Assembly: GCA_964646765.1 (NCBI GenBank)
Contig: CAZYIA010000002.1
Location: 99,467 to 163,466 of the forward strand
Direction: 5' to 3'
Origin: an uncultured Candidatus Saccharibacteria bacterium
GTDB lineage: Bacteria > Patescibacteriota > Minisyncoccia > Phycocordibacterales > UBA9973
Length of the DNA: 64,000 bases
In this document: piece by piece, positions 15,835-54,724 of the stretch
Layout: each line of letters begins with the position of its first letter
Position numbering within the stretch: position 1 is the first letter of the stretch
Notes under the pieces: generated by a model
Database searches by the model: none
Told to the model about the DNA's origin: nothing
Seen by the model: only the letters and a program-made list of their open reading frames with translations
Made by a program: the position numbers and the translations under genes

Positions 15835-16260
15835 ATGCCTTCAATTAACCAGCTCATCAAAAAGCCTCGCAAACAGGTTCGCGCGAAGTCAAAGACCGTG
15901 GCTCTTTCTCGTGGTTTCAACACCTTGAAGAATCGCCCGATCTTTTACCCAGCTCCTTTCAAGCGTGGTGTGTGCACGAAAGTGACGACAACCACTCCTA
16001 AGAAGCCGAACTCAGCGTTGCGTAAAATCGCTCGTGTCCGTCTTTCAAACGGCATGGAAGTTACTGCGTATATTCCAGGTGAAGGACACAACCTCCAGGA
16101 ACACTCAGTGGTTGTTATTCGCGGTGGTCGTGTGAAAGACCTCGTAGGTGTGCAATACCACATTGTTCGTGGTCGTCTCGATGCTCAAGGTGTCGACAAA
16201 CGCCGCAAGGGTCGCTCACTTTACGGTAACAAGAAGCCAAAAGCTGGCGCTAAGAAATAA
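15835..16260 (+). CDS. rpsL: 30S ribosomal protein S12
   Basis: [13 protein letters not shown]...[10 protein letters not shown]...[39 protein letters not shown] is the S12 signature. Confidence 0.92.
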
Positions 16261-16270
16261 GAGTTAGACC

Positions 16271-16741
16271 ATGCGTAGAAAAGTAACCAATCGTAATATC
16301 CCAAAGCCGGATATTAAATACAGCTCAGAGCGTCTCGCTAAATTTATCAACTGCATCATGTGGGATGGTAAAAAAGAAGTCGCTCGTGGCATCGTCTATC
16401 GTGCTCTCGACATCATCAAGGAAAAGGAAAAGGTAACTGATCCACTTGAAGTATTCGAAGCAGCTCTTCGAAACACTGCTCCACTTATGGAAGTTCGCTC
16501 ACGCCGTATCGGGGGGGCTAACTACCAGGTGCCTCGTGAAGTTCGTCCAGAACGCCGTCTCGCTCTCTCTATCCGCTGGATGGTAGGTGCAGCTCGCGGT
16601 GGCAAGGGTCGCCCAATCGCTGATCGTCTTGCTGATGAACTCATCGCCGCTTCAAAAGGTGAAGGTGCAGCCGTTAAGAAAAAGGACGACACACACAAGA
16701 TGGCAGAATCAAACAAAGCATTCGCTCACTTTGCTTGGTAG
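16271..16741 (+). CDS. rpsG: 30S ribosomal protein S7
   Basis: MRRKVTNRNIPKPDIKYSSERLAKFINCIMWDGKKEVARGIVYRALD matches the S7 family. It lies immediately downstream of rpsL. Confidence 0.92.
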   Translation: MRRKVTNRNIPKPDIKYSSERLAKFINCIMWDGKKEVARGIVYRALDIIKEKEKVTDPLEVFEAALRNTAPLMEVRSRRIGGANYQVPREVRPERRLALSIRWMVGAARGGKGRPIADRLADELIAASKGEGAAVKKKDDTHKMAESNKAFAHFAW

Positions 16742-16900
16742 GTCGCAACTCCTTACAGGAGCAGTACACCTTTTGAGATATTTTTGTTCGTAAAACTCCA
16801 AAACTATCTCAAAAGGTCTTGCACTCCTCTAAGTATTCAGAGTTCACTCATCAGCGCCTCGCATCTAAAGCAATTTATATTGATTTTCCAAAATCTATTT

Positions 16901-16928
16901 CTCCACACAAAAACCGCCGTTCATGGCG
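16901..16928 (+). terminator. Rho-independent terminator after rpsL-rpsG
   Basis: The hairpin aaaaaccgccgttcatggcggttttt is followed by a T-run. Confidence 0.5.
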
Positions 16929-16950
16929 GTTTTTGCTATACTGGCAGCAT

Positions 16951-18243
16951 ATGCATCACCCTACGCGGTTGAAAGTTCTCATTGGAACTCTTGTTCTTAT
17001 TTCGATATACGCAGTATCTCTCTTTGCGCTTGCTGCCGTTACCTACGTAACTCCAGGAACTGTTCAAGATCCAGCTGGCGCACCTGGAAGCTATACCGTT
17101 GCTCCTGTTTCAATTGGGGAAACAATAGGGAACTCTCCCGTTCCGACAGGCGCTTTGTATGTAGATGGCAATGGCCTTTTGGCTACGGACGCCGGATTTA
17201 CTCATATTCCCGTACTTGTTGATCAACCAAACCAAACAGTTGCTAATCTAGCTATTTCATCAATTGCCAATACTGTTGATTCAACAACCGGGGTAACCAA
17301 TGTTGGCTTTGAGGGGGGATTAGTTATCAACGATAACTTTGATCATTCAGGAAATGGTGGAAGTTTGATTGGAACAGTAAATGGGGCTTTTCTCTCGAGT
17401 GCTGCCACAATTAATAAACTCATTGGCAACCTAAGTATTTCAGGAGGATATATTGGTGGTACAGGAACGATTACTGATGCTATTGGAGTAGCTTCGAATA
17501 TTATTAATGTTGGCAGTACAGTAACGAATGGTTACTTGTTCTACGGACAGAGTATTGGCTCAACAAACAAATATGGTGTCTATATTGATCTTGATGACAC
17601 GATAAATGTTCTCCGTGAACTTCAGCTCCGCCAAGATAGTCCGCTTAAGTGGTACGACGGCGACAGCTCAAATTACGTTGCTTTCAAGGCACCGAATGTT
17701 GTTGCTTCTGATCTTACTTGGGTGCTTCCTTCAGTTGAGGGAACCGATGGCCAAGTGCTTACTTGGCATACTGGCGGACTTTCGTGGGATACGCCGGCAG
17801 GTGGTGGCGGTGGGGGAGGAGAAACTGTAACCACTGTTAAACTAAGTCTCTCGCAATCTGATATTTTAGCTCTCGGAACAAAGGTAGAAGTTGTTCCAGC
17901 TCCTGGTCCTGGTAAAGCAATTCAAATTCTTAATATCGTAGGCACAGTAAATTTTGGAACTACGGCATATGATACTAATACCCAAATGGTTGGTTTCGAA
18001 GGAACCGATCCAAGTAATGGTATTTTTAGCTCCATAAACCACCTAAATGCTACCAGCTCAAAAACGATACTTTTTAACGCCAACGGTTTTGGTGGACCGA
18101 GTTCGTATAAAGCTGTTGTAGAGAATTCTCCATTTTATATTCAAGCAGGAAGTAGCGGTCCAGGAGGATTTACTGGAGGCAACCCAGCTAATGGAGATAG
18201 TACTATTGATTTGTATGTAACTTATACAACGATCAACCTCTAA
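16951..18243 (+). CDS. Membrane-anchored surface protein, family member A (N-terminal transmembrane anchor, conserved TYVTPGTVQDPAGAPGSYTV box, beta-rich repeats, poly-Gly hinge, C-terminal beta domain)
   Basis: The start was moved to MHHPTRLKVLIGTLVLISIYAVSLFALAA. It is paralogous to 18256..19464 and to the N-terminus of 52088..54724. Shared boxes are NVLRELQLRQDSPLKWYDGDSSNYVAFKAP and LTWHTGGLSWDTPAGGGGGGG. Confidence 0.55.
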   Translation: MHHPTRLKVLIGTLVLISIYAVSLFALAAVTYVTPGTVQDPAGAPGSYTVAPVSIGETIGNSPVPTGALYVDGNGLLATDAGFTHIPVLVDQPNQTVANLAISSIANTVDSTTGVTNVGFEGGLVINDNFDHSGNGGSLIGTVNGAFLSSAATINKLIGNLSISGGYIGGTGTITDAIGVASNIINVGSTVTNGYLFYGQSIGSTNKYGVYIDLDDTINVLRELQLRQDSPLKWYDGDSSNYVAFKAPNVVASDLTWVLPSVEGTDGQVLTWHTGGLSWDTPAGGGGGGGETVTTVKLSLSQSDILALGTKVEVVPAPGPGKAIQILNIVGTVNFGTTAYDTNTQMVGFEGTDPSNGIFSSINHLNATSSKTILFNANGFGGPSSYKAVVENSPFYIQAGSSGPGGFTGGNPANGDSTIDLYVTYTTINL

Positions 18244-18255
18244 CACTTTCATCGT

Positions 18256-19464
18256 ATGTCTATGTCTCTTCAACGAAAAAAAATTCTCCTCGGTTCATTT
18301 ATTTTTATTTCACTCTATGGGGCCGCGCTTACGTATGCAGCGATGACTTATGTTGCTCCAAGTACCGTCCAAGATCCTGTCGGTGCCCCAGGTACTTACA
18401 CAGTTGGTTTTGCTACAGCACCAAATGAGGTTCTCTATACCAATAGTTCAAACCAGCTTGCCTCTGATGCGGGGTTTACTCGTGTTCCAACAATGGTTGA
18501 TTTACCCGATCAATCAATTGGAAATAAAACTCTTACCACAATGCAGAACACGGCTAATACGAATGGTATTGCAAACGTTGGGTCAAGCTCGGTTCTCTTA
18601 ATAAATGACAGTTTTGATCACCTAAATGCGTATACTATTGGGTTAGCAGGTGAAGCAGTGCAAATGAGTAGTGGTACCATCGATAAGCTTGTTGGTCTTG
18701 GCGGCGTATCGATAAACAATGGTTCTGGTGTTGTAACACAGGCAATGGGAACGGCATCGGTGGTGGTTAACTCTGGTAGCGGTTCTATCACCAATGGCTA
18801 CGGATTTTTCTCGAACAAAATTGATGGTACAAATAAGTACGGTATTTATGTCGATGTTGACGACACTACGAATGTTCTTCGTGAACTTCAGTTGCACGAC
18901 GAAAGCCCGCTCAAATTATTTGATAAAGACAGTTCGAACTTTATTGCACTCAAGTCTCCATCAGTTCTCTTAACTGATACGACATATACACTTCCGCTTG
19001 CTGATGGTTCTTCTGGTCAATTTTTGAAAACGGACGGGGCAGGTAACCTTTCGTGGGATACGCCGGCAGGTGGTGGAGGGAGTAGCGACATTCAAACGGC
19101 AACCATTCACGTTAGTTCCGCAGAAATATTAGCACTCAACACTTCTCCTGTAGAACTTTTACCTGCTCCGGGAGCAGGTAAGGCTATTGATTTAGTATCA
19201 CTTGTCGTTAGACAGAACTTCGTTACAACTCAATATGATGGAGGATTCATGGCTATCTTCCCGAGTCTTTACTTTGGTGTAGGTAATATCAGCGACAACA
19301 TTAGTGGTACTCAGCTTGATTTTACTTCTTCGCGTATTACTAAAATGACTATGAACGGCCTCATGGTAGAGAATGAGCCTCTGTATCTTGGAACAAGTGC
19401 CAATCCAACCAATGGTGACGGCACCCTCGATTTCTATATAACCTATCGAATTATCGATTTGTAA
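18256..19464 (+). CDS. Membrane-anchored surface protein, family member B (paralog of 16951..18243)
   Basis: MSLQRKKILLGSFIFISLYGAALTYAAMTYVAPSTVQDPVGAPGTYTV, NVLRELQLHDESPLKLFDKDSSNFIALKSP and GNLSWDTPAGGGGS match the upstream gene in both order and spacing. The C-terminus ends TLDFYITYRIIDL, against IDLYVTYTTINL in the paralog. Confidence 0.55.
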   Translation: MSMSLQRKKILLGSFIFISLYGAALTYAAMTYVAPSTVQDPVGAPGTYTVGFATAPNEVLYTNSSNQLASDAGFTRVPTMVDLPDQSIGNKTLTTMQNTANTNGIANVGSSSVLLINDSFDHLNAYTIGLAGEAVQMSSGTIDKLVGLGGVSINNGSGVVTQAMGTASVVVNSGSGSITNGYGFFSNKIDGTNKYGIYVDVDDTTNVLRELQLHDESPLKLFDKDSSNFIALKSPSVLLTDTTYTLPLADGSSGQFLKTDGAGNLSWDTPAGGGGSSDIQTATIHVSSAEILALNTSPVELLPAPGAGKAIDLVSLVVRQNFVTTQYDGGFMAIFPSLYFGVGNISDNISGTQLDFTSSRITKMTMNGLMVENEPLYLGTSANPTNGDGTLDFYITYRIIDL

Positions 19465-19558
19465 TCCCTTTAAACTGTGCTATAGTTTGCGCTAGAAAAG
19501 ACCTAGCGGTCCTTTTTATTTATCACTTAGAAGCCTTTGCGCTGTATCTTTTATTTCC

Positions 19559-21709
19559 ATGGAACGAGATTATCCTCTAGAGAAAGTACGTAACTTCGGT
19601 ATCGTTGCTCACATCGATGCCGGTAAAACCACGACATCAGAACGTGTGCTCTTTTACACTGGTGTATCACACAAAATTGGTGAAGTGCACGAAGGTGAGG
19701 CAACCATGGACTGGATGGAACAGGAGCGTGAACGCGGTATCACCATTACTGCTGCGGCAACTACCTGTTTCTGGACTCCAACCTACGCAAACGGCGACAA
19801 AAATAAAAAGCACCGCTTTAACTTGATCGACACCCCTGGACACATCGACTTCACCGTAGAAGTGAAGCGTTCCCTCCGTGTGCTCGACGGCGCAGTTGTG
19901 GTGTTCGATGGTGTTGCTGGTGTAGAACCACAGTCTGAAACAAACTGGCGCTACGCTGACGAAGCAAAGGTTCCTCGTATTTGTTTCATCAACAAACTCG
20001 ACCGTACTGGCGCATCATTCGAGAAGTCATACGCTTCTATTCTTGATCGCTTGAACAAAAAAGCTGTTCGTATGCAGATTCCAATTGGTCTTGAAGATAA
20101 GCACGAAGGTGTTATTGATCTTCTTACTATGGAAGCAGTAACGTTCTCGGGTGAAAAAGGAGAAAAAATTTCTCGCGGACCAATTCCTGAAGAGTACAAA
20201 GCTGAAGCAGAAAAGTTTCACAACGAACTCATCGAAGCTATCGTTTCTCATGACGACGAACAGATGACCGCATACCTCGACGGAAAAGTTCCATCAATCG
20301 ATGAACTCAAGAAAACACTCCGTAAGGCAGTTATCGCAAACGAAATTTTCCCAGTGTACGCAGGTTCTGCGCTTAAGAACAAAGGCGTGCAACTCGTCCT
20401 CGACGGTGTTGTAGATTATCTTCCAGCTCCAACTGATATTCCACCAATCAAAGGTATTAACCCTGACACTGAAGAACCAGCAGAACGCAAAGCTTCTGAT
20501 GCCGAACCATTTTCAGCACTTGCTTTCAAGGTTGCTTCTGATCCATTCGTTGGCCAGCTCGTGTTCTTCCGTGTGTACTCTGGACAACTTGCCGCTGGTT
20601 CATACGTGTACAACCCACGCACTCGAAACAAAGAGCGCATCGGCCGTATTCTTCGTATGCACGCAAACGAGCGTGAAGAAGTGAAGAAAGTATTTGCTGG
20701 TGAAATTGCCGCTGCCGTTGGTTTGAAAGACACCATTACTTCTGACACTATCTGTGACGAACAGAATCCAATTGAACTTGATCGCATTGTCTTCCCAGAA
20801 CCAGTTATCAGCTTACGTATCGAACCGAAGACAAAGGCTGACCAGGAAAAAATGGGTATGGCACTTTCTCGTCTTGCTCAAGAAGACCCAACCTTCCGTG
20901 TCACCTCAGATTCTGAAACTGGCGAAACAATCATCGCAGGTATGGGAGAACTTCACCTCGACATTATTGTTGATCGCTTGAAGCGCGAATTCTCTGTTGA
21001 AGCAAACGTTGGTAAGCCACAGGTTGCTTACCGCGAAACTATTACCGGTACTGCTGAAGTGGAAGGTAAGTACATCAAGCAAACTGGTGGTCGTGGTAAC
21101 TATGGTCACGTTCGCATCAAGATTAAGCCAATGGATATGACTCTTACCAAAGAGGATATTGCTGACCTTCCGAAGAACGTGAAGCGCGAAGACCACTTCG
21201 AATTCATTAACACAATTAAAGGTGGTGCAATTCCTCAAGAATATATTCCAGCTTGTGAAAAAGGTTTCCGTGAAGGTCTTGAACGCGGTGTTGTTGCTGG
21301 ATTCAAAATGGTGGACGTTTCTGTTGACCTTTGGGATGGTAGTTACCACGATGTGGACTCAAACGAAATGGCCTTCAAGATTGCTGCTTCAATGGCAATT
21401 CAGGATGCATGTAAACAAGCTCGTCCAGTTATCCTTGAACCGATGATGAAAGTAGAAGTGGTGACTCCAGATAAATTCATGGGTGATGTTACTGGTTCTC
21501 TTTCAGCGAAGCGTGGTCTTATCGAAGGTATGGAAGCTCGTGGTATGAACCAAGCAGTAAAAGCAGTTGTGCCACTTTCTGAAATGTTCGGTTACATGAC
21601 TAACCTCCGCTCAATGACCGAAGGCCGCGCTGGATTTACTATGGAATTCCTTCGCTACGATGTGGTTCCGCAGAACGTCGCCGACGAAATCGTAAAATCC
21701 CGCAAATAA
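19559..21709 (+). CDS. fusA: Elongation factor G
   Basis: The G1–G5 GTPase motifs ([20 protein letters not shown]; DTPGHIDF; NKLD) and all EF-G domains II–V are present, including [13 protein letters not shown]. Confidence 0.95.
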
Positions 21710-52087: not shown

Positions 52088-54724
52088 ATGTTTGACCAAG
52101 TATGGTTATTTCTAAAGCTCCGTATTTTTTCCGAGAAGGTTCTCATCGGAGCTTTTGTATTTATTTCTCTCTATACAGGCGCCTTATACGCATTTGCGGT
52201 TACGTATGTAAACCCGGGAGATGTTCTTGATCCTTCAGGATTGCCTGGGAGTTACACAGTTCGAATATTTCCCAATCAAGCCGGCCATGCTGGAGAGTAC
52301 CTCACTACCGATGGCTCAGGAAATCTAAGCTGGGATTCAGTCTCTGGTTCCGGTAGTCCTGCGGGGAGTGATGGAGAAGTGCAGTTTAATAATGGAGGCT
52401 CTTTTGGAGCTTCGTCTCATTTTTTCTGGGATAACAGCACTAATCGTTTGGGAATAAAGACAAATACTCCGGAAGCGAGTCTGCATCTGCTAGCTTCGCA
52501 AAATATTATTCCAGGAACCCCCGGCACTATCGGTTCAACTTCCTATACTCCCACTGGTCCAGGAGAGCTTGATGACGCGACATTTGGCGGAGATTACTCT
52601 GGAGACAGCGATTGTACAATTGCTGCAGGCATCGCAACGACAGCCCCAGGAAATGGCCATACCAATGATGAATTTATCTGGGGGTATGTAAGCGGTTCTT
52701 GCAGTGGGGGGTCAGGCACTCCGACTGAAATCACCCCAGGAGCTCCTCAGGCTCTTGAGAATGGCATTACGATTACTTTTGCATCAGGAACCGGTCATAC
52801 ACCGTTAGGTGAAGATTTTAGTTCAATTTGGACAGCGGCGGTTACCGCAGGTACTCCAGATACTACGAGCGCTGGAGATGATCCGTTTTTGATCACGAAT
52901 AGTGATGATGCCACTGTATTTAAGGTGGCAAACGACGGCAGAATTTCGGTAGGAGGTAGCATCGGTTCGTCTACCGTATTAATTCACGCTCTTGAAGGCT
53001 ACCGGGCGCTGACGATTCGTAACTTTGACGACAGCAGCCTTCTTTTTTCCATTGATGATTTAGGGGATGCCGATTTGTTTGGTGATTTAAGCGTTGGAGG
53101 TAATTCCTTGGCTGTAAACGGAGTTGATTATACGTGGCCTAGTTCCCAAGCTGGTGGTTCCGGGTATGTTCTTACAAACGATGGTTCGGGTGGGTTATCT
53201 TGGACAGTGCCAGATGGTGGAGGTATTACTGTTGACGCAACAAGTTATAATATCTTTTCCGATAATATAAATGCTGGTACTTCACTTACTAGCGGTACAA
53301 CAAATACTTTTTTTGGTCGGCATGCAGGATCTATTAATACCGAGGGTTCAAGTAATATTTTCATTGGACCATATTCTGGATCCTCAAATACGACAGGCAA
53401 CAACAATGTGTTTTTAGGTTCAAATGCTGGTTTTACTAGCATGATGGGAGACGATAATATTTTTATCGGGACTAATGCTGGGTATCAGGCAAATGCCGCT
53501 CAGTATAATGTTTTCTTAGGTGCAGGTGCGGGCTACTCAAATCTTTCAGGAAATTTAAATGTTGCTATTGGGTATAATGCAGGATCTGTTGCTTCTAATT
53601 ATCAAAATACCTTTATTGGCGCTTATGCGGACGCCACAATTAATACAGTCACTGAATCTATAGCACTTGGCTCTTATTCTAAAGTTAGCAATTCAAATAC
53701 ATTTGTCGCAGGTTCACAAAACGCTCCAATAACAGATGTATATTTTGGTGGAGGAGAGCATCTCGATTGGATGTACGCACCATTCGGTTATACAATTCAC
53801 GGCACCGATGCTAATGGTAATAATTTAAAAGGCGGAGACATTACTCTTATGTCAGGAGCGGGAAGCGGAAATGCTGATGGAGGAGATATTCGCATCGGGG
53901 TCGCTCCGGGCGGTTCTTGCGGCACTCCATCATCTGGCAGTACAAACGGCACGCTGTGTCGTGGGATTTTCGTTTCAGGCAATTACGGAGAAGTAAGTTT
54001 CGGATCATATACCCAATCTCCGGGAACGTTTTACACATTCCCATATAATGACGGCTCGAGCGGTGATGTTCTCGTAACCGACGGTGCCGGTGTTATAACT
54101 TGGGAAGATCCAAGCCTGCTTCCATCTGATATCTCTCTTAAAACAAACATAAACCCGATTTCCTATGGACTCGAAACTCTAGAGAATCTTCGCCCCGTTT
54201 CTTATACCTTGATTGCCTCAGGACGTCCGCAGGTTGGTTTTATCGCCCAGGAGGTTGAAACAGTTGTGCCTGAATTGGTCGGGGTAATCTCGGGAGATAA
54301 AAAAGGAATTCAATACGGCCAGCTCTCAGCGGTGATTGTAAAAGCGATTCAGGAGCTCGACCTTAAGGTACAAAACCTTGAATTGCTTACCGGAGAGGCA
54401 ACTTCAATTGCCGGTCAGTTTACAGAAACGATTCTCCGTGTAAAAAGCATCGTCTTTGGATCGTCTGAAGACCCAACAGGATTTACCATGTATGATACCG
54501 TCACTAAAGAACCGTATTGCGTAACACTTACTAGCGGAGATTTCGTTAAAACCCCGGGTGTTTGCGGTGAAGACAGTAATTTAGGATCTTCTGGAAGTGG
54601 AGACGGCGATGATATTCAAACAGAGGAAACCGTTACTCCGGATGAGCAAGAAGAAGGTGGAAGCGGAGAAGAAATTACTACGGAAAATCCTTCTCCTCAA
54701 GCGGAGCCTGCTCCTATAGAGTAA
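52088..54724 (+). CDS. Tail-fiber-like surface protein: N-terminal transmembrane anchor and family box shared with 16951 and 18256, Gly/Ser-rich hinge, beta-helix-like N.F.G..AG repeats, C-terminal phage intramolecular-chaperone (peptidase S74-like) domain, acidic tail
   Basis: The N-terminus is KVLIGAFVFISLYTGALYAFAVTYVNPGDVLDPSGLPGSYTV...GSGNLSWD. Repeats read NIFIGPYSGSSNTTGNNNVFLGSNAGFTS / NIFIGTNAGYQANAAQYNVFLGAGAGYS. The C-terminal chaperone region is SDISLKTNINPISYGLETLENLRPVSYTL...QVGFIAQEVETVVPELV. Confidence 0.6.
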   Translation: MFDQVWLFLKLRIFSEKVLIGAFVFISLYTGALYAFAVTYVNPGDVLDPSGLPGSYTVRIFPNQAGHAGEYLTTDGSGNLSWDSVSGSGSPAGSDGEVQFNNGGSFGASSHFFWDNSTNRLGIKTNTPEASLHLLASQNIIPGTPGTIGSTSYTPTGPGELDDATFGGDYSGDSDCTIAAGIATTAPGNGHTNDEFIWGYVSGSCSGGSGTPTEITPGAPQALENGITITFASGTGHTPLGEDFSSIWTAAVTAGTPDTTSAGDDPFLITNSDDATVFKVANDGRISVGGSIGSSTVLIHALEGYRALTIRNFDDSSLLFSIDDLGDADLFGDLSVGGNSLAVNGVDYTWPSSQAGGSGYVLTNDGSGGLSWTVPDGGGITVDATSYNIFSDNINAGTSLTSGTTNTFFGRHAGSINTEGSSNIFIGPYSGSSNTTGNNNVFLGSNAGFTSMMGDDNIFIGTNAGYQANAAQYNVFLGAGAGYSNLSGNLNVAIGYNAGSVASNYQNTFIGAYADATINTVTESIALGSYSKVSNSNTFVAGSQNAPITDVYFGGGEHLDWMYAPFGYTIHGTDANGNNLKGGDITLMSGAGSGNADGGDIRIGVAPGGSCGTPSSGSTNGTLCRGIFVSGNYGEVSFGSYTQSPGTFYTFPYNDGSSGDVLVTDGAGVITWEDPSLLPSDISLKTNINPISYGLETLENLRPVSYTLIASGRPQVGFIAQEVETVVPELVGVISGDKKGIQYGQLSAVIVKAIQELDLKVQNLELLTGEATSIAGQFTETILRVKSIVFGSSEDPTGFTMYDTVTKEPYCVTLTSGDFVKTPGVCGEDSNLGSSGSGDGDDIQTEETVTPDEQEEGGSGEEITTENPSPQAEPAPIE

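Follow-up and report, generated by a model that had tools for sequence, protein, structure and literature searches.

What two paralogous genes are doing between rpsG and fusA, inside the str operon, is the question raised by this locus. In the window, meaning the whole stretch of 64,000 nucleotides that was analysed, rpsL (15835-16260) and rpsG, encoding ribosomal protein S7 (16271..16741; Pfam Ribosomal_S7, E 2e-57), are followed by gene A (16951..18243; 430 aa) and gene B (18256..19464; 402 aa, or 400 aa from the ATG at 18262 at which gene callers start it), and only then by fusA, encoding EF-G (19559..21709; Pfam GTP_EFTU, EFG_III, EFG_IV and EFG_C). The genes rpsG and fusA form the upstream and downstream boundaries of the slot, and all features located below, from rpsG onward, lie on the forward strand. 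This gene order, reported in a preliminary description of the DNA, was borne out by open reading frame coordinates, Pfam matches and gene calls. The rpsG-fusA gap measures 2,817 nt, and an 876-aa gene also splits fusA from tuf (a gap of 3,171 nt); with these gaps and a terminator 3' of rpsG, the str operon of the window departs from the canonical contiguous arrangement free of internal terminators. The answer that we favour, and hold to be somewhat probable, is that genes A and B, together with a third gene at 52088..54724 (878 aa, with housekeeping genes on both sides), encode exported, probably trimeric cell-surface fibres built from phage-derived modules in a Paceibacteria-like Patescibacteria bacterium, the A-B pair having arisen by an ancient duplication and having a promoter of its own.

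The slot itself proved to be less unusual than it had appeared. Across 67 related loci the rpsG-fusA gap has a median of 200 nt and reaches at least 650 nt in 21, and the long gaps across the clade hold unrelated genes. The gap is a general accessory-gene site in Paceibacteria. The view of a normally contiguous unit holds in general but not in this clade, and the insertion is not unique to this genome, as the slot takes unrelated contents across Paceibacteria. Two other genomes, L001 (S7 91% identical) and L093 (S7 78% identical), have relatives of A and B in this slot; in L093 the 3' end of rpsG is also present as a copy, which has no counterpart in the window. Looser relatives in L060, a Wolfebacteria metagenome-assembled genome, are positioned 5' of rpsL, and a recurrent association of the A/B family with the surroundings of the str operon is suggested, 3' of rpsG in three genomes and 5' of rpsL in this one. 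A slot reserved for surface proteins was considered and rejected, as only 7 of the 21 occupied slots hold an open reading frame with a hydrophobic N-terminus. That a supposedly invariant junction often hosts accessory genes here bears on annotation by str-operon synteny.

Whether A and B share in the transcription of the ribosomal genes was assessed from the signals on either side of them. Directly past the rpsG stop codon lies a long imperfect hairpin (16752..16833; 35-nt arms, 80% complementary), which has no second copy within the window and is absent from L001. It is followed at 16908..16935 by the rpsL-rpsG intrinsic terminator, whose stem of 11 bp has a GC core and is followed by a T-run (dG -17.5 kcal/mol, z -4.4; none of 200 shuffles folds as well), with an equivalent in L001 at dG -16.6; the rpsG-A spacer as a whole folds at -56.9 kcal/mol (z -6.8). 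A terminator had been noted beforehand at 16901-16928, and while its existence was confirmed, that position is about 7 nt off. Directly after the terminator, 8 nt 5' of the gene A ATG, stands an extended -10-like box, TGCTATACT (16934..16942), whose counterpart in the same place in L001 is TGTTATACT, both conforming to TGnTATACT; in L093, the first gene of the slot has TATACT 6 nt upstream. The TGCTATACT box may be the promoter for A-B, in which case the transcript would be leaderless or nearly so. As a strong, conserved terminator and an extended -10 box both precede gene A, A-B is probably its own transcription unit, and the same two features leave unsupported the suggestion that these genes benefit from transcription of the str operon. 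On the far side of gene B, a second extended -10-like box, TGCTATAGT (19478..19486), with TGTTATAGT as its counterpart in the same place in L001, is a candidate separate promoter for fusA. A weak hairpin with a T-run between gene B and fusA (19490..19508; dG only -8.2 kcal/mol, z -1.0), also present in L001, may be an A-B terminator or a fusA leader.

Genes A and B are paralogues, as had been proposed; their products align from end to end with 43% identity (E 7e-104), and all three of the conserved boxes reported for them were found in both. By part, identity is 55% in the N-terminus, 43% in the central region, 55% in a repeat module and 42% in the C-terminal domain (CTD). The supposedly divergent C-terminal half was not recovered as such, since the CTD is homologous in the two proteins and has diverged about as far as the centre, with more indels. 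Synonymous sites between A and B are saturated (pS 0.7-0.9), so the duplication is old and the dN/dS scan that had been proposed along the genes is uninformative; the rough values available where dN/dS could be computed are 0.14-0.40. Codon identity at conserved A/B residues (73 observed) equals the random expectation (73.2), which argues against recent exchange between the genes except at one patch. This patch, 32 nt at the module/CTD junction of gene A (17779..17810), encodes LSWDTPAGGGG and matches gene B (19048-19079) at 31 of 32 nt. The longest identical A/B run exceeds the codon-shuffle expectation (P about 0.0015), and L001 uses different codons at the patch, which is possibly a micro gene-conversion tract or a recombination joint. 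A second codon-identical patch, of 21 nt, lies at the start of the module.

Against the L001 orthologue, the A/B family retains 42-49% identity, compared with 88-96% for S12, S7, EF-G and EF-Tu; judged by these values, the family changes at about five times the rate of its flanking genes. This rapid change speaks for the interpretation originally offered, in which A and B are diversifying adhesins whose C-termini are selected for receptor switching and which are sited in the str operon for very high transcription. The CTD also has the most indels, and the patches at the module/CTD junction (29-32 nt) and at the module start could serve as recombination joints. However, the CTD has diverged no more than the shaft, codon identity is at its random level, dN/dS stays below 0.4 where computable, gene A has a -10 box of its own behind a strong rpsG terminator, and independently assembled contigs from three sequencing runs agree at 100% identity over the 2,817-nt locus. 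Receptor switching through C-terminal diversification is not supported by these data, and we consider the interpretation as a whole quite unlikely. A DGR or template repeat was likewise rejected, as no long repeat pairing with A or B was found elsewhere in the window.

The layout of the proteins indicates what the genes might encode instead. Gene A comprises a hydrophobic N-terminus (aa 9-29), a conserved N-box, TYVTPGTVQDPAGAPGSYTV (aa 31-50), a Gly/Thr/Asn-rich centre (aa ~51-205), a ~65-aa repeat module (aa ~206-280; 17563..17790), a Gly linker and the CTD (aa ~291-430; 17821..18240), and gene B has the same architecture. The N-terminal segment consists of 19-22 hydrophobic residues after basic residues, with a mean Kyte-Doolittle value of 1.8-2.5, and ends in AxA-like motifs. 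It had been called a transmembrane anchor; the hydrophobic segment is there, but anchoring as such does not follow, as a cleaved Sec signal peptide fits too, and the segment could be either a signal-anchor or a cleaved signal. Hydrophobic N-terminus and N-box are common to A, B, the 878-aa protein and the proteins P0002 and P0009, and a search with the N-terminal profile returned one 79-aa fragment only and no relatives outside the lineage.

The repeat module (consensus NVLRELQL..SPLK..D.DSSNYVAFKAP..LP..DG..GQVL....G.LSW) is, in contrast, widespread. It corresponds to profile positions ~211-280, the part matched in most of 12,398 cluster-representative proteins, which contain up to 24 copies each, often many in giant proteins. 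One such protein, P0003, occupies the tail-fibre slot of a phage, 5' of the holin and endolysin genes. At full length, A and B have no Pfam match at E <= 10 and no PHROGs match, and the module is likewise without a Pfam family; a sub-fragment of A alone matches a minor-tail PHROG (E 1.5e-5). An AlphaFold2 monomer model of full-length A built on 3 sequences reached a pLDDT of 34 and was discarded, and in a second model the module part was of low confidence (pLDDT 44-69).

The CTD, by comparison, was modelled with a pLDDT mostly of 80-96, as a jelly-roll, and it has viral relatives. In hmmsearch, profile A4 matches residues 112-266 of PDB 9EG4 chain H (E 2e-18), and profile A1 matches the same chain with E 1.7e-6. 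This chain is the head decoration protein ("orf16") of the Legionella podophage LME-1 (PMC12407071). The chain is not among the fold-search matches to the CTD model, the homology coming from the profile match, and for this reason the equivalent of the CTD probably lies in unmodelled distal density of 9EG4. Searching BFVD gave 43 matches at E <= 1e-3 (best 7e-12); the matched proteins, of 150-1155 aa, come from uncultured Caudovirales. Two proteins consisting of a stand-alone CTD are encoded in phage contigs, one (P0158) directly 3' of a Phage_capsid_4 gene and the other (P0167) after terminase and large unannotated genes, within a phage structural module. With residues 205-430 of A as the query, tblastn found nothing in 50,697 deposited phage genomes. 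The closest solved relatives of the CTD are capsid-binding cement or decoration proteins rather than proven receptor binders. Together, the ~65-aa repeat and the LME-1-type jelly-roll are two widespread modules without a Pfam family and with at most single weak PHROG matches.

The third gene carries a different end. As had been reported, its product contains a tail-fibre chaperone domain, the intramolecular chaperone Peptidase_S74 (aa 680-731; E 1.1e-14, scoring 54.9 bits where 22 is the cutoff), with the motif SDISLK and a subsequent acidic tail; it alone among the three proteins exceeds the Pfam gathering score for this domain, and A and B do not. The protein has the same hydrophobic N-terminus, an N-box (hmmsearch, E 3e-19), three half-modules of the form LP..DG..GQVL.TDG.G.LSW and a phage tail-fibre/spike-like middle, and it matches tail-fibre PHROGs. 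N-box and half-motif occur in no other open reading frame of the window beyond these three. The notion of a small paralogous family of exported proteins with a common N-terminal element is supported, with differing C-terminal ends: A and B have the jelly-roll CTD, the third member has S74.

As the module and the CTD each have homologues in phages, and as the slot tolerates many unrelated insertions, A and B might be decaying prophage cargo, leftover head- or tail-fibre genes without a cellular function that were inserted by chance at a permissive intergenic site. However, both reading frames are intact and begin with export/anchor segments that virion proteins lack, and a third gene at a distance of 33 kb also has the N-box. 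The slot contains homologues even in a genome with only 78% identity in S7, conservation extends to the terminator and the promoter-like signals, and dN/dS is 0.14-0.40 where computable. Nor are there other phage genes within the 64 kb, where the neighbours are all housekeeping genes. We regard this explanation as highly improbable. A mobile element was also considered and rejected, given no tRNA genes, no flanking direct repeats, no Rfam families and a single copy of the 16752-16833 hairpin. In databases the A/B family extends to three genomes and the looser relatives in L060, a size so small that conservation statistics are thin. A scan of GTDB species representatives with the A/B/P0002 profile found no relatives, and a scan of metagenome contigs found L001 again and two weak partial matches.

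Under the surface-fibre reading that we favour, the lineage-specific N-terminal element, consisting of a basic residue, a hydrophobic helix of the form ..F(I/V)F(I/L)SLY..AL and then TYVxPGxVxDPxGxPGxYTV, would export the protein and keep its base at the cell envelope. A shaft would be formed by the repetitive Gly/Thr/Asn-rich region together with a single copy of the ~65-aa fibre repeat. The Gly linker would bear the distal jelly-roll head, which is homologous to the LME-1 CTD and resembles the cement proteins of phages as well as fibre tips of the TNF/C1q type; this head is the candidate end for ligand binding or lattice formation. The A/B pair would stem from an ancient tandem duplication, be inherited vertically in a narrow sub-lineage within a general accessory-gene landing site, and be transcribed from its own promoter behind the strong rpsG terminator.

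Such fibres need not have a specific partner. The BclA/ExsFA nap of the Bacillus exosporium offers a comparison for a hair-like nap or envelope lattice with a protective or structural role, for example in masking phage receptors. This is consistent with A and B being short (400-430 aa) for long-reach adhesins and with the lack of variation within the population over the three sequencing runs. Fast divergence between related species is, however, more typical of interaction surfaces, and the co-occurring paralogue resembling an S74 tail spike mirrors an adhesin repertoire (PMC10769870), so that we consider a non-specific coat unlikely.

A bolder extension of the fibre reading, which we find doubtful but a little less so than a coat, is that the three genes form an undescribed host-recognition apparatus of episymbiotic Patescibacteria, in which a lineage-specific anchor or sorting module presents interchangeable phage-derived tips. 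Here the module would be the conserved transmembrane helix with its invariant Tyr and the box P...DP...P, and the tips an LME-1-type jelly-roll or an S74-matured spike; the apparatus would parallel the MAT fibres of Bdellovibrio by convergence. Tips could be exchanged at the codon-identical junction patches, which would then act as joints. To our knowledge, host recognition and attachment by ultra-small Patescibacteria are largely unknown, and exported fibres made of phage receptor-binding and decoration modules provide concrete, testable candidates for host attachment.

Among known systems, S74 phage fibres and spikes such as the K1F endosialidase and the T5 L-shaped fibre share the S74 domain with the third member, and the ~65-aa repeat is found also in a phage tail-fibre-slot protein; A and B, however, lack S74, and all three genes encode an N-terminal export/anchor segment and sit among housekeeping genes. 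The podophage jelly-roll cement proteins Pam1 7EEL_H, GP4 8H89_J and KHP40 gp16 7DOU have a sequence identity of only 12-17% and are stand-alone capsid clamps of ~125-155 aa, whereas the A/B CTD is the predicted tip of an anchored fibre. The LME-1 protein has a homologous C-terminal domain, a body that projects from a surface while its other end is fixed there, and stand-alone metagenomic homologues that are encoded within structural modules of phages, in one case immediately 3' of the capsid gene. In contrast, A and B are cellular proteins encoded between rpsG and fusA rather than next to a capsid gene; their N-terminus is hydrophobic, they have a shaft and the fibre repeat in addition, and they lack a capsid-binding base and phage context.

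The proposed functional analogue is the mosaic adhesive trimer (MAT) fibre superfamily of Bdellovibrio bacteriovorus, described by Caulton et al. in 2024 (PMC10769870). In MAT fibres a signal peptide precedes a conserved N-domain, the shafts are phage-like, intertwined trimers of beta-helix/prism type, and the tips are a mosaic of S74 and non-S74 types; the fibres are surface-exposed and bind prey glycans (PMC10769870). They differ from the proteins described here in several respects. The MAT N-domain is ~130 aa, beta-rich and homologous among members, whereas the conserved box here spans ~20-45 aa and is restricted to the lineage, and the likeness put forward is one of architecture; as the N-box has no relatives outside the lineage, close homology to the MAT N-domain is argued against. 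A and B are also far shorter than the MAT proteins, whose crystallised constructs end at residues 922 (Bd3182), 1031 (Bd2133) and 1107 (Bd2439) (PMC10769870), and their host is presumably monoderm and without a periplasmic vesicle pathway. In other respects the two are alike: each is a family of several genes from a small bacterium living on other bacteria, with an N-terminal export signal (putative in A and B), then a conserved family-specific N-terminal element, phage tail-fibre-like shafts (predicted in A and B) and two classes of ends, S74 (SDxxxK; SDISLK in 52088-54724) and non-S74 beta-sandwich or TNF-like tips (A and B). The mosaic of ends is present within this family, with S74 in the 878-aa member and the jelly-roll CTD in A and B. 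The surface or adhesin-type architecture first proposed for these genes matches that of the experimentally characterised MAT adhesive fibres (PMC10769870), and the best reading of A and B is as putative surface fibres analogous to them.

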